Shown: piece by piece, positions 9,677 through 20,999 of the stretch | Layout: every line of letters starts with the position of its first letter | How positions within the stretch are numbered: the stretch's first letter is position 1 | NCBI GenBank assembly: GCA_013204395.1 | Contig: JABMNZ010000010.1 | Coordinates: 1 to 34,227 of the forward strand | DNA from: Parcubacteria group bacterium | GTDB taxonomy: Bacteria; Patescibacteriota; Patescibacteriia; UBA9934; GWF2-40-263 | DNA length: 34,227 nucleotides | Direction: 5' to 3' | Made by a program: the position numbers and the translations under genes | Notes under the pieces: generated by a model | Database searches by the model: none | What the model saw: the letters and a program-made list of their open reading frames with translations, nothing else | Told to the model about the DNA's origin: nothing

Positions 9677-10489
9677 TCAGAGTGAGAGCAACTTGTTGCC
9701 GAAGCGCTCTGCTGTCTTGAGGTACTCCAAGTGGAACTTCTTGCCGATCCTTGCGAACGGGAAGGAGAAGGACACGCTATCCATCTCGATGGTTTGCTCG
9801 CATCCCTGGAGGAATTCTCGGTGAGCTCCGATGTCGTAGAAGTCAGACTCTCGCATCCAAGCCTCGACCATCTTGAAGGATGGAATACCGAAGCCGCCGT
9901 CAGTCTGGATAATGCTCTCAGTCCAGAGTGTCACCCAAAGCTTGTTCTGAGCGTCGTAGTTGGTGATCTGCTCTTCACAGAAGTCGCTGGGTGCGTGTTC
10001 TCCGTTGACGATCTGCCATCGCCTCCACCGGGCGTAGTGCTCGATGTTGCCGGGCATGATGCGATCGTTCTGCCGTGGGTCCTTCAGAATCCTGTCGGCC
10101 CAGATCTCGAAGTTGAAGGTCTGCTCGCGCAGTTCGGGGTGGATCAGGTAGACGAGAACTTCGGTGACGAAGCTTGCATCGAATTCCTGGCTGATCATCC
10201 GGGCGCGCCATTGGGACCAGGCGGGAGCTCGGAGGTCCTGTGATCGCGCTTGCTTCAGCAGCATCATGTGCCAGAGTTCGTGGAGGTACCAGAGGTCTCC
10301 GATGTAGGGATTCCACGAATAGTCACGGGTTGTGATCACGCCGAACATGGCCGTGAAGTGTCCCTTGAAGGGCTCTTCATCTGTCACATAAACGCGCGGA
10401 CAGGCTCTGCACACGCGCTGCACCAACGGAGAGTTGCGCATCAGGTCTGTCTGAAACAGGTTTCGTGAATCGACTTCTTGGATCTGCAT
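9677..10489 (-). CDS. HExxH-motif protein (putative zinc-dependent hydrolase/peptidase), 271 aa
   Basis: YLHELWHMML motif; start MQIQEV at 10489 with GGAGGA RBS (listed ORF extends to 10570 from an upstream Met without RBS). Confidence 0.6.
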   Translation of the reverse strand: MQIQEVDSRNLFQTDLMRNSPLVQRVCRACPRVYVTDEEPFKGHFTAMFGVITTRDYSWNPYIGDLWYLHELWHMMLLKQARSQDLRAPAWSQWRARMISQEFDASFVTEVLVYLIHPELREQTFNFEIWADRILKDPRQNDRIMPGNIEHYARWRRWQIVNGEHAPSDFCEEQITNYDAQNKLWVTLWTESIIQTDGGFGIPSFKMVEAWMRESDFYDIGAHREFLQGCEQTIEMDSVSFSFPFARIGKKFHLEYLKTAERFGNKLLSL

Positions 10490-10547
10490 TCGTTCCTCCA
10501 GTCCATGGAGTGGACAAGTCAAGATAGCGGAGAGTGGACTAAGTGTC

Positions 10548-10575
10548 AACCAAAAAGACCGCGTGGACAACGCGA
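10548..10575 (-). terminator. rlmN terminator; right boundary of island 1
   Basis: minus: gatcgcg-ttgtcca-cgcggtc + tttttgg just after rlmN stop (10584). Confidence 0.5.
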
Positions 10576-10583
10576 TCTTTGTG

Positions 10584-11624
10584 TTATTTAGTCTTATTAT
10601 TTTCTACAATCAATTGCCCGCAAGCCGCTGCGATATCATCTCCCATGGTGTGACGGATGGTCGTGACCACACCTTTCTCCTTTAGAATTTTTTGGAAGAG
10701 ATCTGTCGCAGATCCGGTTGAGCATTGGAACTCTACCCCCGTAAGGTTGTAGGGAATAAGGTTGACTCGCACGTTCCCGATTCTTTTTACAAAGTTTGCC
10801 AAGGTCCTGGCATGCTTCTCAGAATCATTCACATCCTTGAGCATCACATATTCAAAAGTGAGATGATGTCGACGGTTACCAAACTTCTTGAGATAGGCCT
10901 TTGCCCAGGCTTCTATCTTTGGAAGAAACTCGTCATAGGAAGTAGGGACGATCTCTTTACGCGTTGCCGGTATGGCACTGTGTAGTGAGACAGCCAAACG
11001 GATATGTGGCCAGTCATCATCTGTAAGAATTTGCTCTAGTCGAGGGAGGACGCCGACCGTTGAAACAGTAATGCGTGTGCGTCCAATGTCTGTGTGTTTC
11101 AAAATAGCATTAAGAGATTCTTTTACGGCACCGTAGTTTGCCAGTGGCTCACCCATACCCATGAAGACGATGTTACTAATTCGTCCTTCTAATTCTGGAC
11201 GCTCATCCAAGTATCTTTGCCAGAAGCGATATTGATCAATGATCTCGTCGGCAGTAAGGCTTCGGCTTAGGCCCATCTTTCCAGTTGCACAGAAACCGCA
11301 GCGCATGGCACAACCGATTTGTGATGATACACAGATGGTCCATGCTTCACGTTTGTTTTTCATCAGGACAGATTCGATCTCCTTATCGCCCTCAACTTTT
11401 AAGATGACTTTGTGTGTGTCGCCATTACCGCTTTTCAAAATATTTTCTGGTTCAACCGTTGAGAAGGGGATACTGGAGATTTTCTCTCTAATTTCTTTTG
11501 AAAGAGAGGTGAGATCCTCCCAAGATTCAGCGGTCGAAAAAAGACCCTGTTCAATTTGTTTCCAACGGAAAGCTGGCTGGTCAGGAAAGAGTGTTTCAAA
11601 TTGTTCGCGTCGTGACTTAATCAT
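10584..11624 (-). CDS. rlmN: 23S rRNA/tRNA (adenine-C2)-methyltransferase, radical SAM
   Basis: CAMRCGFCATG CxxxCxxC motif, ...GMGEPLAN..., full-length similarity to RlmN; ATG at 11624 (listed ORF starts at TTG 11633). Confidence 0.9.
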   Translation of the reverse strand: MIKSRREQFETLFPDQPAFRWKQIEQGLFSTAESWEDLTSLSKEIREKISSIPFSTVEPENILKSGNGDTHKVILKVEGDKEIESVLMKNKREAWTICVSSQIGCAMRCGFCATGKMGLSRSLTADEIIDQYRFWQRYLDERPELEGRISNIVFMGMGEPLANYGAVKESLNAILKHTDIGRTRITVSTVGVLPRLEQILTDDDWPHIRLAVSLHSAIPATRKEIVPTSYDEFLPKIEAWAKAYLKKFGNRRHHLTFEYVMLKDVNDSEKHARTLANFVKRIGNVRVNLIPYNLTGVEFQCSTGSATDLFQKILKEKGVVTTIRHTMGDDIAAACGQLIVENNKTK

Positions 11625-11667
11625 ACAAACCAATAGGCGAGAGCAAATGCTCTCGCCCAGGTAAATG

Positions 11668-12171
11668 TTATTTTGCAGCTTCTTCCCCGGCGGAGCCGGG
11701 TCCGGCTTCGCCGGAAGCCTCTGCTTCTTCTGCAGGTGCTTCTACCTCTTCTGCAGGTGCTTCCTCTACAACAGGCTTTTCGAGTTCAGCTTTTGCCGCC
11801 TCAGCAGCAGCAGCCTTCTCTTCCTCTGCCTTAGCCTTCTTTTCTTCTTCCTTCTCCTTTGCTTCTACCACCTTCTGTTCCAACTTACCTTTTCGTTTTT
11901 TGGTTAAGTGGGTGGCTGTACGCTTTTCTCCCTCAATAACCTTTTGGTCAACAAGGAGGTTCCACACACTGTCAGATGGCTGCGCACCTTGCTTGATCCA
12001 GTACTTTACGCGATCAGCATTGATGACAACTTCTTTTGGTGTTGAACGTGGGTTGTAGTGGCCAAGAATTTCGTTTGAGTTGGCCCATGGGTCACGATGC
12101 TTAGGCATAACCACAATGCGGAATACCGGTCGCTTCTTTGATCCCACACGTGAGAATCGAATTGAGAGCAT
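11668..12171 (-). CDS. rpsP: 30S ribosomal protein S16 with long A/E/K-rich C-terminal extension
   Basis: MLSIRFSRVGSKKRPVFRIVV...NRVKYWIKQGAQPS; C-terminal ~80 aa low-complexity AEK-rich. Confidence 0.9.
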   Translation of the reverse strand: MLSIRFSRVGSKKRPVFRIVVMPKHRDPWANSNEILGHYNPRSTPKEVVINADRVKYWIKQGAQPSDSVWNLLVDQKVIEGEKRTATHLTKKRKGKLEQKVVEAKEKEEEKKAKAEEEKAAAAEAAKAELEKPVVEEAPAEEVEAPAEEAEASGEAGPGSAGEEAAK

Positions 12172-12210
12172 AATAAATTGATGTTTTTTGTCTTAAGTGA
12201 GCGCTTAGAC

Positions 12211-12239
12211 AGTGCCGGCAGTATAAAAGGGAAGCGGAT
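12211..12239 (-). promoter_or_regulatory. sigma70-like promoter for rpsP (TTGACT-17-TATACT)
   Basis: minus strand TTGACT (revcomp 12234-12239), 17-nt spacer, TATACT (revcomp 12211-12216), ~40 nt upstream of rpsP ATG. Confidence 0.55.
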
Positions 12240-12348
12240 CCAAGTCAATGAGTAGTGTCCAACAATTGCGTTATTTATTATGTTTAGATCAGCTGACACG
12301 TACAAGAAAAGTGACTAAAATTAGTGCAGAATCCGTCAGTTAGTCTTG

Positions 12349-12528
12349 ACAAAAGTGGCAAAAAGTGGTAGTATGACCACGCAATATGAGAGTAGGTAAG
12401 AGGACCTAACTCGATCAATACAATCAAATATTCTCTGGGGAGAGAGTACAAATAAAGCCTAGATTTTAGATCTAGAGCCGATTGTTGTGTATTTCTTTCC
12501 AGAAGTAACCACCAATCGGCTTTTTTGT
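12349..12528 (+). ncRNA. candidate small RNA unit: promoter TTGACA-17-TAGTAT then ~140-nt hairpin-rich transcript ending in intrinsic terminator
   Basis: TTGACA at 12349; terminator gccgattg...caatcggc + tttttt at ~12480-12528; no ORF; internal hairpins tctctggggagaga, ctagat..atctag. Confidence 0.35.
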
Positions 12529-12598
12529 TCGCTAGGCATGGACTGAAGATTTCGTCTTCAGTCTTGTCCTAACGAGCATATACCTGGAGGTACCGCTC

Positions 12599-12832
12599 AT
12601 GTCCCGTTTTGCCATCATCCTGTCTCTCATCGTCGCAACGATCACCGCCACCACCGTCAACTCGTCCCTCGACCAGCTCCACGAGCAGTTCCAGGCCACG
12701 GAGCTGACCTTTCACCCCGTCAGCGTGACCATTCAGGTCGAGTCATCGGACGAGACCACGGTCACCTACGACGACGCTGACAACGGCGTCACCGAGATCG
12801 ACTTCCACCAGCCCTTGTTCATCGAGGGCTGA
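12599..12832 (+). CDS. small secreted/anchored acidic protein (77 aa), first gene of high-GC island 2
   Basis: GGAGG RBS; N-terminal hydrophobic MSRFAIILSLIVATITATTV; GC3 ~85%. Confidence 0.55.
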   Translation: MSRFAIILSLIVATITATTVNSSLDQLHEQFQATELTFHPVSVTIQVESSDETTVTYDDADNGVTEIDFHQPLFIEG

Positions 12833-12875
12833 TCAAACCGGACCGCAAGGTCCACACGGAGCCCCCGGCTAACGC

Positions 12876-12932
12876 AAGCCGAGCCTGCCCGCCATCGCCC
12901 TGATGTCAGCTTTGCTGACTGATGGGCGACGG
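12876..12932 (+). repeat. long imperfect inverted repeat (structured element after 12599 gene)
   Basis: gcccgccatcgccctgatgtcagc-ttt-gctgactgatgggcgacggtgggc. Confidence 0.5.
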
Positions 12933-13355
12933 TGGGCTCTCCAACTGAGTTTCTGAGTTTACTCGGAAACTCCGCGGGGAGTCACATGACTCTGGTCATT
13001 ACAACTGAATACTTCCAAGGCTCACAACGATGTTGTGCATCTTGGAAGGCTGGTGAGTGTGATTCCTATCATCGCTCGCCAGCCCGTTCTTTCCATGAAT
13101 CCGGAAGAAGATACTTTGTCCTTCGTGGTGGCCCCAGAGGGGAGCCTGCCAAGGGGGAGAGAGACAACCGTCCAGTTCGACCGCTATGCGGAAGTCTGGC
13201 GGTGAAGATCAAATGGTTTGACTAGGCTCCGGCTTGCTCACTCCATACTCAGATCTTCTCGCATGACACTCAGCTTGCTGAGTCACTCACGCATTTCTTC
13301 TCCGGATTCTTGGAAAGAATACAAGACCGACGAAACCTTCCCACAAGACAGGAAA

Positions 13356-13625
13356 ATGATTTTGAACAAGTTAACTCGAATGATCGGTTCCAAGGCAGGT
13401 TTCTGCCTCACGGGGATGACGTTTCTTACATTCATGATGGCGACCCATCCGTTCGATACGTGCTACACCCTGAGCTTCGATCACATCGAGCACGTCGGGA
13501 AGTACCTGATCCAGAACTACGTCACCAGCCGCCTGATCCTTCTCATTGGCCTGGGGGTTACGTTCGTGCTCGGTGCACGCATTTACTTCTCTGTTGAGAA
13601 GCTTAGTGACTGGTGGAAAAACTGA
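13356..13625 (+). CDS. small membrane protein, 2 TM (89 aa)
   Basis: start MILNKL within ORF 13218..13625; TM segments FCLTGMTFLTFMMA and LILLIGLGVTFVLGARIYF; high GC3. Confidence 0.55.
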   Translation: MILNKLTRMIGSKAGFCLTGMTFLTFMMATHPFDTCYTLSFDHIEHVGKYLIQNYVTSRLILLIGLGVTFVLGARIYFSVEKLSDWWKN

Positions 13626-13668
13626 GCGTAGAGAAGAAGAGTCTACTGCTAATTGCTGAACCTGCTGA

Positions 13669-13863
13669 ATGCTGGAGCTGAACATGCTGCTGAACATGCT
13701 GAAGACCCTGGGTCACGTCCTCGTGATCCTTCTCATTCTCACCCCCTGCGCGGTCATGCCGTACTTCACCTTGGATGGAGACATTAACCTCCTGTCCATG
13801 GTGGTCTGCATGGCATCGCTTTCTCGTACTGTCTCTGGGCCTTCAGCGAGAAGCTGGGCCTGA
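13669..13863 (+). CDS. small hydrophobic peptide (64 aa); 3' end uncertain, GC3 suggests frame continues in +2 frame to 13886
   Basis: MLELNMLLNMLKTLGHVLVILLILTPCAV...; begins in tandem 12-nt repeats. Confidence 0.3.
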   Translation: MLELNMLLNMLKTLGHVLVILLILTPCAVMPYFTLDGDINLLSMVVCMASLSRTVSGPSARSWA

Positions 13864-13916
13864 AGTGGGAGCACATCAACTTCTAGCTCGCAGAGGAGAA
13901 CGTCCTCAACAGCGGG

Positions 13917-13985
13917 CTCCTCAACTGAGAGGTCGACCACGTAAAACCCTTTGGGTCACGTGACAAGTCGAAACTTCAGTTGGGG
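13917..13985 (+). repeat. attC-like imperfect palindrome (CTCAAC-TGAGA ... CTTCA-GTTGGGG)
   Basis: outer arms ctcaactgaga / cttcagttggg with nested hairpins cacgtaa..tcacgtg and accc-ttt-gggt. Confidence 0.5.
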
Positions 13986-14049
13986 AAAACGATTCGACAA
14001 AATTCGCAGGCGTCGTCCTGCAATCCCATAACATGGGAGAAAGGTTCAC

Positions 14050-14256
14050 ATGAACCAGTTCTACACCGTCGGTACTGATTTCTGGTACCTCATGTTGGCC
14101 GCGTACCTGGGATGGTTCCTCATCGTGCGCGAGGCTCGTCTCGTGCGTGAAGGTGGTCTGCGGCGGGAGGCTCTCGTCCTCTTCTGCATGCTCGCGGCCA
14201 CCACAGCCGTCACCTGTTTCATGGGTGACGTGGTCTGCTGGGTGTTCAACACCTAG
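14050..14256 (+). CDS. small membrane protein, 2 TM (68 aa)
   Basis: GGGAGAAAGG RBS; MNQFYTVGTDFWYLMLAAYLGWFLIV... Confidence 0.5.
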   Translation: MNQFYTVGTDFWYLMLAAYLGWFLIVREARLVREGGLRREALVLFCMLAATTAVTCFMGDVVCWVFNT

Positions 14257-14272
14257 GGACCACATACAAACC

Positions 14273-14410
14273 CCCACCAGGAATCCGCCTGGTGGGTACG
14301 ATCGAGCTAAACTTGCCTACCGGCAGGCATGCTCGACACGCCTCAAGCAAACGCAAAGCTTGAGGACCGAACTGAGAGGTTGATTGCAATAATCGAAACT
14401 TCAGTTGGGG
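14273..14410 (+). repeat. repeat family C copy 1: two hairpins (ccaccagg..cctggtgg; cctcaagc..gcttgagg) + attC-like palindrome ending GTTGGGG
   Basis: near-identical to 17785-17880 apart from a 42-nt insert. Confidence 0.7.
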
Positions 14411-15407
14411 ATCTAGATATTTTTCCTCTCGTAGAATCTCTTTCAACTAGAAAGCGTCTCCCTGCCGGCGCGAAACCCTATTAGGCAGGGGGGTCTAGCC
14501 ACCTAGACTTTTATCATCGATTCCAAGCTCGTGGTGGTGCGAGTGTACAGGAGGGCCAATGCCCAAGAGATAGAGGGAAGCATCTGGAGGTCTTTGACCA
14601 AGTTATCGACCAGGTGTGGATCATACAGGTAACCCGGCGTACTATGCGTGGATTTTTTAAGCGGAGAGTGGGGAACGGAAAGGAGCTAGAAACTCTGAGT
14701 ACAAGTACGAAGCAATCCCGTTTAATTATCCCTCCGGAATCTCCGGAACGTCGGTGAGCAGCAATGCTCTAAAGGGTCGCGCTAAAGCATGGGAGCCATT
14801 TGATTGATAGGGCTCTAAGGTCTGGCAAACCAATTCGATCAAAAAGGTCTTCTGACTTAGACCTCCTGACTCGTCAGGTTAAATGAAGTCTCCTCTTGCA
14901 CGTGGAGGTCAATGTGCACTGTGGTCGGCTGAGCCAACTCGTCTGGATGGGTTGCGCCCATATCCCGTTGTCCGAATACGTAAACGGTCGACTTGCTGCA
15001 CAGCATCCGTCTAGGGTCCTGTGTGAGTGAGCAACAAGTATCGGTGACCCTTGCTAAACGTCATCATTGAAAAAGGAGAGGTCGCGTGACCTTCCCCCTG
15101 CTGTTCTACGAGTCTTGATGTCGCGTCTCCCAGTGGCTCGCGCCAAAAAGCACTGGAGGGTGAGTCGCTGCATCCAAACGTCAGCGTCTGAGGCCCCGGA
15201 AAGCTCGTCATGAGCGACCGGGGTCTCGAACGATCCCGGTCGCCATGCACGTTGCCGACCGGGTCCTCAACAGAGAAATTGATCCAGGTGATGGATGTCT
15301 CTGTTGAGGGCACGAGGCCCTACCTTGAGACTCTGCACATTTGGTTATGTGTGGATCGAAAGCGGTGTCATATTTCAGAATTCGAGAATATTTGAACCGG
15401 AGGAACG

Positions 15408-15746
15408 ATGTCTGAATTGACCGGAGCCTATTACGTCGCGTTGCTCGTCGACCGACGAGTGGTGAACGCGAAGGTAGCCATCATCGATGGTGATCGCACC
15501 AAGGTCGAAATCGGCGGGATGACGCTGTGCCTGGACTTCATCAGTGAGGGTCATGTTGGGGTCATCCGTGAGCCGTACGACATCAGCGACTACTTCGGAA
15601 CCGTTGTGGCCAACCAGGAGCCCACACGCTTCTCTCGTGGAGTCGTGGTCGGGTTCTACCCCGGCGAATCCGGACAGGAACTCGCTCAGTGGTGGTCCGA
15701 GAGCATCGGGTCCATGAACCTGATTCTGGATGCCGACGGCTTCTAG
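15408..15746 (+). CDS. hypothetical protein (112 aa)
   Basis: GGAGGAACG RBS; high GC3; no recognisable motif. Confidence 0.6.
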   Translation: MSELTGAYYVALLVDRRVVNAKVAIIDGDRTKVEIGGMTLCLDFISEGHVGVIREPYDISDYFGTVVANQEPTRFSRGVVVGFYPGESGQELAQWWSESIGSMNLILDADGF

Positions 15747-15915
15747 AGATCACAAAACGTGTCACCCGGGTCCGGAGCTGCCCCACTCCTTCTGGAGAAA
15801 ATCAGCGATCCCTACTGGTGCAGGTGAACCTTTAAGTCAAGATCTCTGTGACGTGGATACGCCACCGCACAGAGAGCCACATTTCGTGGCACGGTCTCGA
15901 GTTCTGACACGACTC

Positions 15916-15961
15916 GAGATTCCAACGTAGATCTCAAGTTTCCTTGAGACCTGCGTTGGGG
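15916..15961 (+). repeat. repeat family A copy 1 (attC-like: CCAAC-GTAGA-TCTCAAG-tttc-CTTGAGA-CCTGC-GTTGGGG)
   Basis: 45-nt imperfect palindrome; second copy at 16383-16427. Confidence 0.7.
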
Positions 15962-15966
15962 AAAAC

Positions 15967-15990
15967 AAAACAACCCCTTATGGGGTTGTG
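15967..15990 (-). terminator. terminator of the low-GC coiled-coil gene
   Basis: minus: caaccccataaggggttg + ttttgtttt. Confidence 0.6.
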
Positions 15991-16001
15991 GAGTCGGTCT
16001 G

Positions 16002-16337
16002 CTAAAAGTCGAGTTGAATATTGGCATGTTTTGCCAGCAGGAGCACATGCGATTCAAGCCTTTCGTATTTGGCTCGCAAGGCGGCCAGTTCTGTGTCGAG
16101 TTTTTGATGAAGGATTATAATCCCATCTACATGAGTGATAATATCGGATTTTACCTCCGTCAGCTTCTCATCAACGGTATGCTTGAAATCATGTAAGTCA
16201 GAGCGAACCTGAGTAACTTCATCACGAACCTGAGTAACTTCATCACGAACCTCACCTAGCTCATGGCTGGTTGCAGCAGTTTCCTTGATGAACTGAACGG
16301 TCTCAAGGATATCTTTAATCATTTCTTCTTGTCCCAT
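16002..16337 (-). CDS. coiled-coil protein (111 aa) with in-frame 21-nt tandem repeat (VRDEVTQ x2); low-GC module inside island 2
   Basis: GC ~42%; own promoter TTGAGC-17-TATGAT (16346-16374, minus) ending 8 nt before ATG (leaderless-like); own terminator. Confidence 0.6.
   Translation of the reverse strand: MGQEEMIKDILETVQFIKETAATSHELGEVRDEVTQVRDEVTQVRSDLHDFKHTVDEKLTEVKSDIITHVDGIIILHQKLDTELAALRAKYERLESHVLLLAKHANIQLDF
16204..16256. repeat. 21-nt tandem direct repeat x2.5 inside coding sequence
   Basis: cgaacctgagtaacttcatca repeated at 16204-16224 and 16225-16245, partial third copy. Confidence 0.8.
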
Positions 16338-16382
16338 ACTCAGAAATCATAGCACGGAGTCGTTCTCTGCTCAATTATCATT

Positions 16383-16427
16383 GAGATTCCAACGTTGAGC
16401 TCAAGTTTCCTTGAGACCTGCGTTGGG
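16383..16427 (+). repeat. repeat family A copy 2
   Basis: gagattccaacgttgagctcaagtttccttgagacctgcgttggga; 2 substitutions vs copy 1. Confidence 0.7.
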
Positions 16428-16499
16428 AAACCACACAGGAAACCCAAACCAAACTGAAACCGTGAGCTTAGGCTCACACCACCAGCCCTTAGGAGAAAC

Positions 16500-16661
16500 A
16501 TGCTGCTTTTCATTCGATGGATCCTTGGCTTGGAAGAGCCCGAGACCTACAACTGGGATGAATTGATGGCCGCGGCGAGAGCAAAGGGTCCGGTGAATCC
16601 GGTCACCCATTGCTACTGCGAGCCACACCCCGATTGGGGTGACTCCTGTCAGTGTGACTGA
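16500..16661 (+). CDS. Cys-rich small peptide P1 (53 aa)
   Basis: AGGAGA RBS; MLLFIRWILGLEEPETYNWDELMAAARAKGPVNPVTHCYCEPHPDWGDSCQCD; paralog of P2. Confidence 0.5.
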   Translation: MLLFIRWILGLEEPETYNWDELMAAARAKGPVNPVTHCYCEPHPDWGDSCQCD

Positions 16662-16677
16662 GCCACGCGCTCGCCAT

Positions 16678-16783
16678 GAGGACGCTCCTCATCGCGCGCC
16701 TGCCGCGTAACAGGTACCCTGAGGGTCTCGTTTTACGCGGCTCCTCAACGTAGAAGTTGATTCATTCGACACTTACGTTGAGG
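16678..16783 (+). repeat. repeat family B copy 1 (80-nt structured element + attC-like palindrome cctcaacgtagaag..cttacgttgagg)
   Basis: gaggacgctcctc, ccgcgtaa..ttacgcgg with inner accctgagggt; copy 2 at 16999-17107. Confidence 0.7.
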
Positions 16784-16807
16784 ATCCATAATTTATCAGG
16801 AGATTCC

Positions 16808-16972
16808 GTGACTAAGTTCATTGTTTGGCTATTGGCCTTAATCGATGGTCCAGCGCCGATGCCAGAAATGCTGCGTGATCGCCCGAAGGGCAGGAACCGC
16901 ATCTACCCAGAGACGGGGTGCACCTGCGCCCCTGAAATTGAGTGGCAGGATTCCTGTCACCATCATCACTGA
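16808..16972 (+). CDS. Cys-rich small peptide P2 (54 aa, GTG start)
   Basis: AGGAGATTCC-GTG; (M)TKFIVWLLALIDGPAPMPEMLRDRPKGRNRIYPETGCTCAPEIEWQDSCHHHH; shares FIxWxLxL N-term and C.C.P...W.DSC core with P1. Confidence 0.5.
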   Translation: MTKFIVWLLALIDGPAPMPEMLRDRPKGRNRIYPETGCTCAPEIEWQDSCHHHH

Positions 16973-16998
16973 GTCAGCCCAGCTCGTAAGCCCGCACC

Positions 16999-17107
16999 GA
17001 GGACGCTCCTCATCGCGGGCACGCCGCGTGACGAGTACCCTGAGGGTCTCGTTTTACGCGGCTCCTCAACTGAGAGGTTGATTGCTACAATCGAAATCTC
17101 AGTTGAG
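16999..17107 (+). repeat. repeat family B copy 2 + attC-like palindrome ctcaactgaga...tctcagttgag ending GTTGAGT
   Basis: perfect 11-bp arms around ggttgattgctacaatcgaaa. Confidence 0.7.
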
Positions 17108-17135
17108 TGACGCTTTGTCACTAAGGAAGGTGAGT

Positions 17136-17264
17136 GTGGAAAAGAGTTCGAAAGAGCAGGTGGACTGGTTTCAGGTGCTCGTGTGGATGGGGATTGTCCT
17201 GTTTGGTGTGAGTTTCTGGACGATTGTCTACTACGGGATCTGCAAGGTTGCAGACCTGCTTTGA
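17136..17264 (+). CDS. single-TM mini-protein (42 aa, GTG start)
   Basis: AAGGAAGG RBS; ...VDWFQVLVWMGIVLFGVSFWTIVYYGICK... Confidence 0.35.
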   Translation: MEKSSKEQVDWFQVLVWMGIVLFGVSFWTIVYYGICKVADLL

Positions 17265-17284
17265 TGAACAGAAGGAACGAGGTG

Positions 17285-17770
17285 ATGATGGACATTTATC
17301 GCGTACTAGGAAAACTCTCGTGGGGCATGAAGATGCTCTTCTCGGGAATCGTTCGTGTGATCGAGAAGCCGTCCGTCTGGCTTGTCGAAAACATCAAGGA
17401 GATGACCGGCTGCCGGACCTACCACGTGGAGAATTCCGCTGTGGCTCTGGTCCTGGTGATCGTTCTTCTGAGCACGGGAAACTGGAGTCACCCCTTCAAG
17501 TGGGTCGAGGCGCTTGCCGTGCTGATGACCTTCGGGCACGCCGGGATCGCCCAGCGACTCGAGGAGCAGCAGCGACAACAGTTGGACCTCCATGGGGAGG
17601 CGCAGGTACCGTGCTTCTACAAACTGGAGCCGATGTTCGTCGGCAAGGAGACCCTCTGGATGATCACGTTCGCCGTGGCAGGACTCTGGTCCGCACTCGC
17701 TGGCGTCTTTGTCTTCCTGATGTACTATCCCTGGCGGGAAGCCTGGCGACACCAGCATCCGCTCAGGTAG
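17285..17770 (+). CDS. hypothetical membrane protein (161 aa)
   Basis: start MMDIYRVL with AAGGAACGAGG RBS; TM segments AVALVLVIVLLSTG, MITFAVAGLWSALAGVFVFLMYY. Confidence 0.55.
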   Translation: MMDIYRVLGKLSWGMKMLFSGIVRVIEKPSVWLVENIKEMTGCRTYHVENSAVALVLVIVLLSTGNWSHPFKWVEALAVLMTFGHAGIAQRLEEQQRQQLDLHGEAQVPCFYKLEPMFVGKETLWMITFAVAGLWSALAGVFVFLMYYPWREAWRHQHPLR

Positions 17771-17784
17771 ATGCATCGTAAACT

Positions 17785-17880
17785 CCACCAGGAATAGGCC
17801 TGGTGGAAACGCCTCAAGCTAACGCAAAGCTTGAGGACCGAACTGAGAGGCCAAGAGAAATCTTGGAACCTCGGTTGGGA
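17785..17880 (+). repeat. repeat family C copy 2
   Basis: ccaccaggaataggcctggtgg...cctcaagctaacgcaaagcttgagg accgaactgagagg...cggttggga. Confidence 0.7.
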
Positions 17881-17904
17881 ACTAGATATTGGTGAGAATC
17901 AAAA

Positions 17905-17938
17905 AACACATCTCATAAGAGGTGTGTTTTTTGATTGG
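17905..17938. terminator. bidirectional terminator, right boundary of island 2
   Basis: aaaaaacacatctcataagaggtgtgtttttt. Confidence 0.6.
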
Positions 17939-17962
17939 GTGATGTGGTTGGCAGTTAGTATA

Positions 17963-18084
17963 TGGTGGCAGATGCGATGGCAGGCTGAAGCCAGGCTCTA
18001 CATTCCAAGTACGGTGGCAGGCTGAAGCCAGCCTCTACATGCGTTCGATGATACATGTGATGTAGCGGCGGGCTTCAGCCCGCC
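17963..18084. repeat. REP-like hairpin block, left end of Y1-transposase unit
   Basis: two ggcaggctgaagccagcctct hairpins + ttcgatgatacatgtgatgtagcggcgggcttcagcccgcc; same block repeated in direct orientation at 18603-18721. Confidence 0.75.
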
Positions 18085-18101
18085 ATGTCTCTGCGCTAAT
18101 T

Positions 18102-18566
18102 CTATAACTCATCAACGTCACAAACGAATGATCCCAGATATGGATAGTTCCTCCAATCATCAACGAGACCACCCCTTTGAGGGTTTAAGAGAATGTAGGC
18201 TGCGACATCCTTTATGGATTCTTCGTTTCTTAATATGTGGTCGTAATAGCCTTTTTGCCAGAGGGGTGTCCCTGTTGTTTTTTTGAAATGGAAGCCGGTT
18301 AATTGCTTGAATGTTGCAATTGTTTTAATCAAATTTTGATCCTCATTGGTGGGGGCCATCAAGAGGTGCAGATGATCTGGCATGAAACAATAGGCATAGA
18401 TCTCCCAACTTTGCTTACAGGCACTCTTTAGATGATTGAGACAAAACTCTACGTGAGATGGTGATAGAAAATGTCGTTGACGGTTGAATGTGCAGATGGT
18501 TACTGAGTAGGCTCGCTGTTGGTTGTAGACGTCATGGGGGAGCCGGTTTTGTTTTCTTGTGAACAT
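18102..18566 (-). CDS. HuH Y1 transposase, REP-associated tyrosine transposase (RAYT)/IS200-like
   Basis: MPDHLHLLM (HuH) and LWQKGYYDHILRNEES...YILLNPQRGGLV (RAYT WQ..Y.DH signature); listed ORF extends to 18725 by reading through the repeat block. Confidence 0.75.
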   Translation of the reverse strand: MFTRKQNRLPHDVYNQQRAYSVTICTFNRQRHFLSPSHVEFCLNHLKSACKQSWEIYAYCFMPDHLHLLMAPTNEDQNLIKTIATFKQLTGFHFKKTTGTPLWQKGYYDHILRNEESIKDVAAYILLNPQRGGLVDDWRNYPYLGSFVCDVDEL

Positions 18567-18602
18567 AGGTGGTGGGTGTGACAGCGGGACGTTACGCATA
18601 TG

Positions 18603-18721
18603 ATGGCAGGCTGAAGCCAGCCTCTGCATTCCAAGTATGGTGGCAGATGCGATGGCAGGCTGAAGCCAGCCTCTACAGCGTTCGATGATACATGTGATGT
18701 AGCGGCGGGCTTCAGCCCGCC
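18603..18721. repeat. REP-like hairpin block, right end
   Basis: see left block. Confidence 0.75.
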
Positions 18722-18734
18722 ACATGTGTGTACA

Positions 18735-20999
18735 TCATCGTCTCGCTGTACCACCTTGAGCCACTTCTTCTAGATGAACTGAAAGCAGGTTTGAGATTCC
18801 CTCGTCACCCATAGTCACACCGTAGAGTACGTCAGCTTGTTCCATGGTGGCGCGGTTGTGTGTGATGATCACGAACTGTGAGTTTTTGGAAAGCTCTGAG
18901 AGAATGCCGGCGAACCGGACGGTGTTTGATTCGTCCAAGGCGGCGTCCACCTCGTCGAGAACGACGAAAGGGGAAGGGTTCACGGCCATGATGGCACTGA
19001 TCAGAGCGATCGATGTTAGTGCTCGCTCTCCACCTGATAGTAAGTTCAGGGCTTTGAGTTTCTTGCCCGGAGGAGTTGCTTGTATGTCTACGCCGATCAC
19101 TGGGTCTGTGTGTTTTTTAACTTTGGTTTCTATGGCATCTTCTTTGTCCCTTTGCCCCTCTCCCGTATCGGCAAAAGCTCGGTCAGCAGAGACTCCTTCA
19201 CTCTCATCTTCTTCAGGAATATCTTCTTTGGTGAGTTTAACCAGACGACAACTTCCACCACCAAAGAGCATCTTGAAGTACTTTTCAAACTCGGTGTTTA
19301 TTTTACCAAAGACTTTTTTGGATTGTTTTTCAATTTGCTCATCCAGTTCAACTATGACTTTCTCTGTAGACCTGAGAGCTTTGTGAAGATCCTTTACCTG
19401 GTCATCTAGGAATTGGAAACGCTCGTTGGTTTGCTCGTACTCCTGAACAATCTCAGGATCGATGCCACCAATGAGTTCTAGTTTATACCTAAGGCGTTGA
19501 ATCTCAGGATAGGTATCAGTGCCAGGTGAGTTTTCTGGTCTGTTAGATCTAACCTCGATAGCTCGATCTTTCATGAACTCGTCCATCTCTCGGATCAGGG
19601 CTCCTTGTCGCTCTTCAAAGCGGGCTAAGTCGATCTCAAGTGTCCCACGTCGGTTTTCATACAAGTGAATCTCTCGCTGTTTCTCGCGGAGAAGCTTTTG
19701 CATCTCAATGAGCTCAGTACGCTCAGTTTTTTCTTTTGTGGCGTATGAGTCAATCTGTCCCTCTAGCTTCTCAAGTTCCTTAGCAAGCTTCTGTTCATCG
19801 ATACCAAGACTTTTTAGTTTGGCAACGAGCGTTGGATCTGACTTGATGTCTTCTGGGTTTGGACGCTGAAGCTTTTTATTGAGATCCGTCGAATGTTTTA
19901 ATAGAGCCTCAACTTCTGAGTGGAGCTCGGTGACATCCTTAATCTTCTTTAGGCCCGTTAGACCTTTTACAATAGCGCCAACTTGCTCGACGATTCTAAT
20001 AAGAGGTAGTGGAGCCCAGTTGCTCTGCGCCCTCACACGTGTGAGTTCTATTTCTTTTTCTGTTTGGAAATGTTCGTCTCGGAGAGATCGTCGTTTCTTT
20101 TGCAATTCTCGATAGGTCGTCTGTAGCGCAACCAGTCCTGTGTCTGGTGTCACATCAACTCTTTCAACTGCATCAACTTTCTTTTCCAAACTATCTAATT
20201 CTCTGCGCTCGGCAATGATCGTCTTGTCTGCCTCGTCAAAATCTTTCTTTACAGTCTGCAGGCTGTCGACCAAGTTCCACCATTGATCTCCATAATACTG
20301 TCCTTCAAGTATGTGGAGGCTCTCTTCAATGGCACCACGTTTTTCAAGACGGCTCGCTTGGCGCTTGAGGGATCTTAGGCGTGGCTCGATTTCTCTGAGC
20401 AACATTTCTACGTCAGCAAGATTTTCATGTGTACGCTTGAGTTTCAATATGGAGTTATGGCGTTTGATCTGGAACGGCTTTACCCCCGTGGCGTCATCAA
20501 AGAAAGCTTTGCGCTCCTCTGGCGTGGAAACCAAAATATGATCAATCATGCCCTGACCCACTACCGAATAAGATCTCTGGCCAACGTTCGCTTGAGCCAA
20601 TAATAACTGAATGTCGTTAAGACGAACCTTTGAATCATTTAATAGATACTCAGAGCTGCCATCACGAAAGAGACGACGGGTGATCGTTACTTCGCTGTAA
20701 TCGATGGGCATGGCCCTATCCTCATTGTTAAAAGAGATGCTGACTTCTGCAAATCCAGCTCTACTCTTCCCTTCAGATCCAGAAAAAATAACATCCTCCG
20801 ACTTTTTACCACGGAGGAGCTTTAAGCTCTGCTCGCCAAGCACCCATCGGATAGCATCAGCAAGATTTGATTTTCCAGAGCCATTTGGGCCCACAACAGC
20901 TGTAATTGGGGATCGATCTGCCTGTGGTGGCAAGAAACTAAGACTCGTTTTTTTCGCAAAGGTCTTGAATCCCTGTATTTCAAGCTTGGTCAGGTACAT
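18735..20999 (-). CDS. smc: SMC-family chromosome segregation ATPase, short (754 aa, hinge-less/abbreviated coiled coil)
   Basis: N-terminal Walker A GPNGSGKSN, C-terminal LSGGERALTSIA signature + Walker B VLDEVDAALD; long coiled coil. Confidence 0.8.
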   Translation of the reverse strand: MYLTKLEIQGFKTFAKKTSLSFLPPQADRSPITAVVGPNGSGKSNLADAIRWVLGEQSLKLLRGKKSEDVIFSGSEGKSRAGFAEVSISFNNEDRAMPIDYSEVTITRRLFRDGSSEYLLNDSKVRLNDIQLLLAQANVGQRSYSVVGQGMIDHILVSTPEERKAFFDDATGVKPFQIKRHNSILKLKRTHENLADVEMLLREIEPRLRSLKRQASRLEKRGAIEESLHILEGQYYGDQWWNLVDSLQTVKKDFDEADKTIIAERRELDSLEKKVDAVERVDVTPDTGLVALQTTYRELQKKRRSLRDEHFQTEKEIELTRVRAQSNWAPLPLIRIVEQVGAIVKGLTGLKKIKDVTELHSEVEALLKHSTDLNKKLQRPNPEDIKSDPTLVAKLKSLGIDEQKLAKELEKLEGQIDSYATKEKTERTELIEMQKLLREKQREIHLYENRRGTLEIDLARFEERQGALIREMDEFMKDRAIEVRSNRPENSPGTDTYPEIQRLRYKLELIGGIDPEIVQEYEQTNERFQFLDDQVKDLHKALRSTEKVIVELDEQIEKQSKKVFGKINTEFEKYFKMLFGGGSCRLVKLTKEDIPEEDESEGVSADRAFADTGEGQRDKEDAIETKVKKHTDPVIGVDIQATPPGKKLKALNLLSGGERALTSIALISAIMAVNPSPFVVLDEVDAALDESNTVRFAGILSELSKNSQFVIITHNRATMEQADVLYGVTMGDEGISNLLSVHLEEVAQGGTARR

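Follow-up and report, generated by a model that had tools for sequence, protein, structure and literature searches.

The window analysed here, a 34,227-nt stretch of contig JABMNZ010000010.1 (GenBank assembly GCA_013204395.1, Parcubacteria group bacterium), contains at positions 12599-17880 an island filled with small orphan open reading frames (ORFs) and punctuated by imperfect palindromes. To our knowledge, no well-understood system other than the integron stockpiles gene cassettes that lack promoters, and the layout of the palindromes recalls the attC sites of integrons. The question is whether the island is an integron array, a cassette array of another kind or a row of small genes whose hairpins act in RNA. 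The sites resemble attC in layout but are a distinct, non-canonical family, and the explanation that we favour, though it falls short of being probable, is a non-canonical, integrase-less cassette array in which the palindromes are recombination sites at the unit boundaries.

The palindromic sites

Eight strong imperfect palindromes, and one that is decayed (S0), were found within 12599-17880. They are listed below with their scores against R1, a covariance model of the array sites.

12939-12979 (+): S0, decayed; CCAAC left arm kept, GTT arm lost; 14.8 bits, E=2.2
13919-13985 (+): S1; 47.9 bits; long loop formed by an inserted mini-hairpin of ~31 nt
14366-14410 (+): S2; 52.6 bits; preceded by two conserved hairpins in the 3' untranslated region (UTR), at 14274-14296 and 14340-14365
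15265-15309 (+): S2b; 45.3 bits; abuts the 3' end of a candidate structured RNA
15920-15961 (+): S3; 46.3 bits
16387-16428 (+): S4; 44.5 bits; 94 % identical to S3; between divergently oriented genes
16743-16783 (+): S5; 48.2 bits
17064-17108 (+): S6; 54.4 bits
17837-17880 (+): S7, the last site; 50 bits; preceded by the same 3'-UTR hairpins as S2

The initial annotation had reported seven palindromes, all of which are present, with coordinates that were right to within 2-4 nt. S2b had been missed, and what was taken for a 1550-bp cassette is actually two units split by this site. Three proposed families in which the 3' UTR and site are near-identical are also real, namely D3 (16669-16762 and 16990-17083, 86 % identical), D6 (15916-15963 and 16383-16430, 94 %) and D4 (14325-14400 and 17796-17871, 80 %). 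Other conserved 3'-UTR hairpins that are not site-like are also present (repeats D3, D4 and D10).

The sites are 41-67 nt long. Their outer stem measures 11-12 bp and their internal loop 2-3 nt, and the terminal loop is tiny. The left arm, YYYSAAC, is followed by 4-5 more paired bases, 2-3 nt that are mostly unpaired and an inner TYGA/TCGA box; after this box come a loop of 3-7 nt and the mirror arm, which ends in GTTGRGD. This structure is conserved across 22 distinct sites, aligned from the window and four relatives (five lineages in all). The proportion of pairing cells was 84.7 %, versus 73.3 % in shuffles (none of 500 as high), and it fell to 26-45 % when the partner columns were slid out of register. 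Compensatory changes, affecting both sides, were found at 13 of the 20 pairs, and AAC:GTT is invariant in all 22 sites.

These repeats form a genuine family that is specific to the locus. R1 was run over 1.5 Mb, including 76 unrelated bacterial loci and nine class 1 integron loci. At E<=10, it had no match in ~1.3 Mb from the unrelated loci and none in 135 kb of class 1 integrons, where no real attC site was recognised. Within the window, sites occur only in 12939-17880 and are absent from ~28 kb of flanking genes. Across all flanking DNA examined (~65 kb, which includes the flanks of related loci), no site was found beyond the arrays.

An Rfam scan of the whole window at E<=10 found no family for the sites. 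Like intrinsic terminators, the sites are GC-containing stem-loops downstream of genes. However, a terminator scan reported none of the eight, none has a T-run, and they are also found upstream of divergent genes, whereas the true terminators near the array have T-runs (15989-15970, flagged by the scan, and the hairpins at 12476-12527 and 17897-17936, identified from the sequence and repeats I14 and I17). The possibility, raised in the initial annotation, that the repeats are terminators of a duplicated operon therefore fails.

The mini-hairpin in the loop of S1 (CCACGTAAAACCCTTTGGGTCACGTG..., 13937-13967) is also found in a related array, L003 (described below), in the loop of the site at 8906-8976 (8927-8957). 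A free-standing copy lies near the end of the L003 array (about 11172-11202) and is missing at that spot in a further related array, L005. It has the look of a small hairpin that is mobile or prone to insertion.

The locus and related arrays

The window is an entire JGI metagenome contig, and its 5' end lies within a 16S rRNA gene. In a scan of GTDB species genomes, the nearest relatives of the RlmN protein were in Candidatus Uhrbacteria metagenome-assembled genomes (MAGs), with 74 % and 63 % identity, and the next-closest matches were in Peregrinibacteria and Patescibacteria. The host is thus identified from its RlmN relatives as a Candidatus Uhrbacteria-like bacterium of the candidate phyla radiation (CPR), in which genomes are of the ~1-Mb class. 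The array is chromosomal and has housekeeping flanks, being located between the rpsP/rlmN side and smc. Its G+C content is ~55 %, versus ~45 % for the core genes. The nearest core genes are:

10584-11633: rlmN
11668-12171: rpsP
18735-20999: SMC-like gene (smc)

Other core genes in the window are the DHH, ClpP, VanW and riboflavin genes.

The rpsP-smc locus bears arrays in at least eight related contigs. These arrays are 5 to at least 17.5 kb long, differ in cassette content and adjoin smc, rpsP or both (L003/L004, L005, L009, L010, L101, L102, L103 and L104). L003, L004 and L005 were reached via the only homolog cluster of ORF112 and show the synteny rpsP, array, smc. L010 was reached via the RlmN scan and is from a different Uhrbacteria MAG, in which the order smc-array-rpsP is kept. 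Homologs of the minus-strand ORF111 led to L101, where the array adjoins smc, to L102, where it adjoins rpsP, and to L103 and L104. The L103 array (GCA_964538435.1; smc side, 2713-20038, at least 17.5 kb) includes at least 30 small orphan ORFs without a Pfam family, and the L104 array (GCA_900089805.1; smc side, 7054-20284, at least 13 kb) includes at least 27 small ORFs without a Pfam family. In L104, a gene for a 95-aa GIY-YIG nuclease (6418-6705) lies between smc and the array.

L009 was reached via a scan of JGI metagenomes with the DNA pattern AACTGAGAGKN{12,42}GRAAYYTYRGTTGRG. The pattern had no match in GTDB species genomes or in viral contigs and two in the JGI metagenomes, namely L009, which is a real related array, and L008, which was set aside as a chance match because it is not palindromic. 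An empty-site comparison via L011-L013 was dropped because the rpsP/smc synteny is absent there, and L105 (the context of P0015) is unrelated to the arrays.

R1 matches were confined to the Uhrbacteria arrays, and included sites on which the model had not been trained, at L010 2898-2938, L099 10869-10911, L102 558-601, and L101 5048-5092 and 6133-6175.

Units and their exchange between lineages

The genes and other contents of the units in the window are as follows.

12599-12832 (+): first small ORF, 77 aa, orphan; the L003/L005 homolog is 47 % identical
13356-13625 (+): ORF89, membrane-type orphan; divergent allele in L003 (46 % aa identity), absent from L005
13684-13886 (+): ORF67-family membrane peptide gene, frameshifted; 1-nt gap near 13813-13814 relative to L003/L004
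14050-14256 (+): ORF68, membrane peptide; ratio of nonsynonymous to synonymous divergence (dN/dS) 0.37 against L003
about 14460-15265 (+): candidate structured non-coding RNA, ~800 nt, filling an ORF-free unit
15408-15746 (+): ORF112, orphan; single homolog cluster
16337-16002 (-): ORF111, coiled-coil protein; T-run terminator at 15989-15970 and promoter-like site at 16374-16346
16500-16661 (+): ORF53, Cys-rich peptide; paralogs or orthologs in L003, L005, L009 and L010
16808-16972 (+): ORF54, Cys-rich paralog of ORF53; 30 % aa identity, 3' UTRs 86 % identical
17136-17264 (+) and 17288-17770 (+): two-gene unit of ORF42, membrane peptide, and ORF160, membrane protein

One hairpin closes each unit, whatever the orientation of the gene, and a unit consists of one or two tiny orphan genes, a reversed gene or the large RNA. 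The polarity of the sites is uniform along each array, including around reversed genes. The initial annotation had placed all genes on the plus strand, which is wrong for ORF111, a minus-strand gene with its own T-run terminator and promoter-like site. Sites between divergent genes are found in three lineages (S4 in the window, L103 9926-9966 and L104 9905-9948), and at each of these spots the reversed gene and one site together form one unit in the array direction. A 3'-end RNA hairpin has no reason to be there.

The locus is hypervariable, and units differ in presence, number and position between lineages. In the window, the ORF111 unit is bracketed by the 94 %-identical S3 and S4, and an ORF111-family gene is antisense in five related arrays, at different depths. 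There are two Cys-rich peptide units in the window versus one in L003, and L003 and L005 have an ORF42 homolog and lack ORF160. An extra unit in L005 (ORF71) lies exactly between the site at 1833-1877 and an S7-type site at 2308-2351, which here follows a different ORF. Beyond the latter, the sequence that follows S1 in the window resumes, so the L005 junction falls within GTTGGG. L009 has a 205-aa ORF in place of the non-coding unit. ORF67 is intact (67 aa) in L004 and L003 and has homologs in L005 and L009, and the frameshift in the window reflects either a pseudogene or an assembly error.

At least one unit has been exchanged recently. Between the window and L003, the DNA identity of core genes is ~88 %, with a synonymous divergence of 0.46 for SMC and 0.42 for rpsP. 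The synonymous divergence of ORF112 is 0.075, about six-fold below that of the two core genes measured, and its dN/dS is 0.45, which together indicate a real gene that was recently shared. Array blocks that are near-identical to L003 (13670-14064, 99-100 %; 14800-15931, 97-98 %) neighbour ORFs that are only 61-84 % identical.

Individual sites can also be followed between lineages. S0 is conserved in four lineages, being found in the same place in L003, L005 and L009. S2b is identical in L003 and L005, and an equivalent site follows the RNA in L010, L101 and L102. At the place of S3, the outer arms are kept in L003 and L005 and the core is different. In 4 of the 22 aligned sites, the fourth position of the R box is non-complementary (GAAC in the left arm, GTTG in the right arm), and in two cases the right arm's final base goes with the downstream unit, namely A before ORF53/58 (S4 and L3X) and T before ORF42 (S6 and L3b). 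The non-complementary sites may possibly be hybrids arising from right-arm exchange, though this evidence is thin. S3 and L3X have outer arms in common and different cores, and S3 and S4 are near-identical, though simple insertion models predict a difference. A single fixed crossover point was not mapped by the hybrid sites, and no single-event model fitted.

A large structured RNA candidate

The unit between S2 and S2b has no long ORF under codes 11, 4 or 25, and protein coding at 14420-15270 was rejected, as codon periodicity is also lacking. The initial annotation had suggested a non-coding cassette here; the stretch is indeed non-coding, but it is not empty DNA. Substitutions in the element at 14460-15265 show no 3-base periodicity, and it is the only part of the island that is conserved at the DNA level in the distant L010 (74.8 % over 580 nt, blastn). 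Copies were also found in L101 (nhmmer E=7e-122) and L102 (nhmmer E=1.6e-99). The copies in related contigs are:

L003, about 9020-9861
L005, about 3040-3850
L010, 5710-6616 (-)
L101, 5086-5922 (-)
L102, 595-1293 (-)

RNAalifold applied to the six sequences predicted 170 pairs, 44 of which have compensatory changes, and these are clustered in several helices. The consensus fold of the forward strand is better than that of the reverse strand (-213.7 versus -190.4). On this evidence, we regard 14460-15265 as a strong candidate for a large structured RNA not described before. Rfam at E<=10 found no family for it in 14380-15330, in the L101, L102 and L010 copies or in the whole window. The element is a recurrent array component, present in 6 of the 10 related contigs examined, and it is site-bounded like the other units, with a hairpin site directly after it in every lineage. 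Class C introns are known to insert after hairpins. A group II intron identity was not adopted, as no Rfam intron model matched at E<=10.

Are the palindromes recombination sites?

In the reading that we favour, the array would be sedentary, fixed between rpsP and smc, with each unit ending in a palindrome in the array direction. The palindromes would serve as cassette-boundary recombination sites, folded as hairpins or cruciforms, and in this form they would allow units to be gained, lost, duplicated and exchanged between lineages. The enzyme acting on them would be encoded elsewhere than in the array. We infer both recombination at the sites and its enzymatic, rather than ordinary homologous, nature. 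A boundary role at the DNA level is preferred over a purely RNA role because of the sites between divergent genes, the uniform polarity, the lack of T-runs and the absence of sites from the flanks. The favoured reading also draws on the conserved fold and specificity of the sites, the variable content at a fixed locus, the site-bounded ORF71 unit in L005, the different depths of the ORF111-family gene, the recent exchange of ORF112 and, thinly, the possible hybrid sites.

The array resembles clusters of attC sites without an integron integrase (CALIN; PMC4889954) and sedentary chromosomal integrons in many respects. Its genes are small orphans in a row, most of them without a promoter and most pointing the same way, and each unit has a same-polarity palindrome. 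In the palindromes, AAC...GTT sits at the foot of the outer stem; an unpaired zone lies inside the structure, together with an inner box and an apex that varies. Reversed units keep the site polarity, and strain-variable content is found at a fixed chromosomal place. Of the integron-like array proposed in the initial annotation, the cassette organisation (one same-polarity site per small unit, strain-variable content) is retained and the attC identity is not.

A number of observations weigh against the reading that we favour, namely those in this and the next three paragraphs that concern departures from attC, the missing recombinase, the diversity of outer arms, the position of exchange borders and the colinear gene order. 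The defining features of attC are R and L boxes, central spacers that are unpaired, extrahelical bases, a terminal structure that varies (20-100 nt) and AAC/GTT triplets (PMC4889954). For comparison, class 1 integrons located with IntI1 supplied eight real attC sites, which were folded in the same way as the array sites. In these, the spacer lies directly inside the triplet and there are single-base bulges on one arm (7/8 folds; dfrA27 gave no hairpin), and the terminal structure is long. In contrast, the stems of the array sites run 4-5 bp past the triplet before a mostly symmetric 2-3-nt loop (columns 12-14). Extrahelical bases, which the initial annotation had proposed to look for, and consistent single-base bulges were not found in the folded array sites. 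R-to-L spacing differs from that of attC by ~2 nt, and the terminal loop is only 3-7 nt in 20 of the 22 sites, the length of the two long sites being due to the inserted mini-hairpin. The strand preference is also reversed. Of the eight real attC sites, seven have a bottom strand whose stability equals or exceeds that of the top strand (with a tie for aadB), and there are nine G:T pairs on the bottom strand versus four on the top, whereas 15-18 of the 22 window-clade sites are more stable on the sense strand. The left arms (CCTCAAC, ACCGAAC, TTCCAAC and similar) and right arms (GTTGGGG, GTTGAGG, GTTGGGA, GTTGGGT and GTTGAGT) match the purine run of the RYYYAAC/GTTRRRY consensus and mostly do not match its first and last positions.

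The arms of the eight class 1 attC sites were used to make a surrogate attC model, R2, which is narrower than the attc_4.cm model of IntegronFinder. R2 recovered 13 real attC sites, including the untrained aadA16, and found nothing at E<=10 in the window, L003, L005, L009 or L010; neither site model recognises the sites of the other. No sizeable ORF in the window has a Phage_integrase Pfam match, and tblastn searches with IntI1 against the window, L003-L005 and L009-L011 returned only noise (E>1) and no integrase remnant, which agrees with the initial annotation for the window. The precomputed Pfam gene tables of L103 and L104 also list no tyrosine recombinase. What survives of the interpretation in the initial annotation is its fallback, a novel system of attC-like repeats.

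The sister arrays L103 and L104 extend the site family. They contain ~20 and ~13 intergenic palindromes, respectively, with the length, geometry and inner (C)TCGA(G) box seen in the window. Their outer arms are of three types:

type P, CCACCGATC...GGTCGGTGG
type Q, TCYCCGTCTGAG...CTCGGAYGGAGA
type R, TCCTCAACTGAG...CTCGGTTGAGGA

AAC/GTT is found only in type R, which is represented by one site each in L103 and L104, and the others have CGA/TCG or GTC/GAT. The wider family is thus without a common invariant cleavage motif, and because the P and Q arms lack AAC, an AAC-cutting IntI-like enzyme cannot serve such arrays. No cross-type hybrid arms were seen among the ~33 sites. At 11-12 of the 13 L104 sites, the better fold is that of the strand antisense to the genes, and there is no clear preference in L103, so that strand polarity is inconsistent across the site family. 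The opposite polarity in L104 means that strand preference is not tied to mRNA.

The borders between high- and low-identity blocks often lie inside units and not at sites. In L005, an unrelated 154-aa ORF replaces ORF68, with 5' and 3' flanks that are visibly the same, and in L009 the same 154-aa ORF precedes the corresponding S2-type site. As these borders and the swap of ORF68 for ORF154 are inside units, much of the exchange looks like homologous recombination rather than fixed-point crossover. The initial annotation had suggested a comparison of relatives for cassette shuffling. Unit content does vary, but gene order is largely colinear between lineages and there is little of the shuffling expected of an active integrase.

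Alternative explanations

The most serious alternative is that the palindromes are RNA-level elements, either processing sites or stabilising end hairpins, whose sequence families persist by descent and gene conversion, with the variation arising by homologous recombination between dispersed repeats. We regard this as possible but rather unlikely. It would account for the mosaic identity and ORF swaps that break inside units, for outer arms that vary among types P, Q and R while the geometry stays, and for the failure to find a recombinase in the loci tested. It also agrees with the greater stability of the sense strand in the window clade and with the excess of G:T wobble on that strand (23 versus 5 in minimum-free-energy folds); ~40 alignment cells are G:U, and column 16:56 is T:G in 12 of the 22 sites. 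The site directly adjoining the 3' end of the large RNA in all lineages, the single palindrome between the convergent RNA and ORF111-family gene in L101 and L102, and the other conserved 3'-UTR hairpins that are not site-like (D3, D4 and D10) point the same way. Sense-strand wobble was rejected as decisive proof of an RNA role, given the opposite polarity in L104 and the fact that related copies are not independent events. However, no transcript ends at the sites between divergent genes in the window, L103 and L104, the antisense strand folds better in most L104 sites and L103 shows no clear preference, and the sites lack T-runs even though canonical T-run terminators stand beside the array. 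Nor would an RNA role explain why the flanks are free of them, both in the window (~28 kb of genes) and at the related loci, or why there is no hairpin between ORF89 and ORF67 and between ORF42 and ORF160.

Selfish palindromes of the repetitive extragenic palindrome (REP) or miniature inverted-repeat transposable element type, spread by a trans-acting transposase and accumulating in a permissive, fast-evolving, intergenic-rich locus, are an improbable explanation. As in REPs and bacterial interspersed mosaic elements with a REP-associated Y1 transposase (RAYT), the sites are imperfect intergenic palindromes of ~40 nt, and several families coexist in one array. A RAYT with REP doublets stands at the array edge in two lineages, the window and L005, REP doublets occur inside the L104 array, and the ~31-nt mini-hairpin is polymorphically inserted in site loops and elsewhere. 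The array sites, however, have no GTAG-type head and are unrelated in sequence to the REPs that flank the RAYT (GTAG + CGGCGGGCTTCAGCCCGCC). They are confined to one locus, with none in the ~65 kb of flanks examined, and there is exactly one per unit, in one polarity. Furthermore, L003/L004 lack the RAYT, and L009, L010, L103 and L104 have no Y1 transposase listed, yet all of these bear arrays.

A canonical CALIN, with very short attC sites and an IntI that is elsewhere in the genome or has been lost, is more improbable still. The AAC/GTT triplets and YYYSAAC/GTTGRGD arms are invariant in all 22 window-clade sites, the units are 325-1000 bp long, a separate ribosome-binding site serves each ORF, and the palindrome is close to the next start codon. 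Spacing (at least two sites within 4 kb) and absence of intI would fit a CALIN, if the sites counted as attC. Approximately half of CALINs lie in genomes without intI (PMC4889954). On the other side are the blank result with R2 despite its recovery of 13 real sites, the symmetric loops without extrahelical bases, the internal loop 4-5 bp inside the triplet, the ~2-nt difference in spacing, the short terminal loops and the preference for the opposite strand. Most sites in the sister arrays also lack AAC/GTT, and there is no IntI-like sequence in the loci tested. Integrons are rare in genomes of <2 Mb (PMC4889954) and, in IntegronFinder surveys, are concentrated in Gammaproteobacteria, whereas the host here is a CPR bacterium; in the literature searched, neither integrons nor attC arrays are reported from CPR, Patescibacteria or Uhrbacteria.

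In T4-type phages, hyperplastic regions contain 'mobile regulatory cassettes' made up of a promoter and stem-loop that flank small novel ORFs. The RNA-level alternative described above resembles this arrangement. The array is similar in having repeated hairpin modules by small ORFs, apparent modular gain and loss by recombination between repeats and mosaic identity. It differs in being chromosomal and between housekeeping genes, in having a repeat without a promoter motif and in the conserved two-stem geometry of the hairpin with its TCGA inner box.

A stronger version of the cassette array that we favour would be a CPR-specific platform independent of integron integrases, which would use minimal two-stem hairpins, with a TCGA inner box and outer arms that differ by lineage or type, and a structure-specific enzyme. 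This we consider unlikely. In such a platform, the ~800-nt RNA might even be part of the machinery.

Other features of the array and the window

Pfam searches with all of the cassette proteins in the window and ten from relatives gave no credible family, and a profile search with the Cys-rich peptides found no members beyond the related loci already found. The content of the ORF111 unit (15970-16374) has a GC of ~45 %. A perfect 21-nt tandem duplication in ORF111 (CGAACCTGAGTAACTTCATCA x2, 16204-16245 (-)) gives VRDEVTQ x2 in the protein. Further features of the array and its edges are:

12346-12374 (+): predicted sigma-70-like promoter upstream of the array, TTGACA-17-TAGTAT, TG-extended (consensus scan)
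12476-12527 (+): terminator-like hairpin with a T-run (inverted repeat I14), between the promoter and the first ORF
12929-13319 (+): conserved non-coding block that includes S0, with a long-range 19-nt inverted repeat (I11, 13087-13105 and 13301-13319)
18102-18725 (-): RAYT (Pfam Y1_Tnp), between the array and smc

The 12476-12527 region is 93 % conserved in L003 and L005, and a second imperfect palindrome (12526-12578) lies just ahead of the first ORF. The 12346-12578 segment could be a small RNA or an attenuator-type leader of the array. The 12929-13319 block is 96 % identical to L003 (core ~88 %) and 85 % to L009 (core 78 %), where the reading frame is not kept, and it may be a second RNA or a regulatory element.

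The RAYT is flanked by REP doublets at 17976-18095 and 18602-18722, and similar doublets are found inside the L104 array. For L009, L010, L103 and L104, the search for a Y1 transposase covered the ORF lists or gene tables.

Upstream of the array, a second variable spot without hairpin sites (8383-10570 (-)) contains two orphan genes, one of 388 aa and one of 297 aa in which there is an HELWH motif, between a PNP_UDP_1 phosphorylase-family gene (7364-8083) and rlmN. Both are missing from L003, where there is a 154-aa ORF instead. A SAM riboswitch (57.3 bits, 8160-8264 (-)) lies upstream of the phosphorylase gene, and a major-vault-protein-like gene (Vault, MVP_shoulder and Band_7 domains) is found in a high-GC stretch at 3459-5201 (-).

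Significance

The array mimics the layout of attC yet breaks its rules, with no integrase in view, in several Uhrbacteria-like lineages. It also exposes a candidate large structured RNA with strong covariation support that was previously undescribed (no Rfam match). Cassette platforms may be broader than the IntI/attC paradigm, although there is only a small chance that this array is a separate, IntI-independent platform. Alternatively, hairpin-punctuated rows of small genes may arise convergently, via RNA-level constraints and homologous recombination. Either possibility bears on how ultra-small symbionts diversify their repertoire of membrane and secreted peptides.

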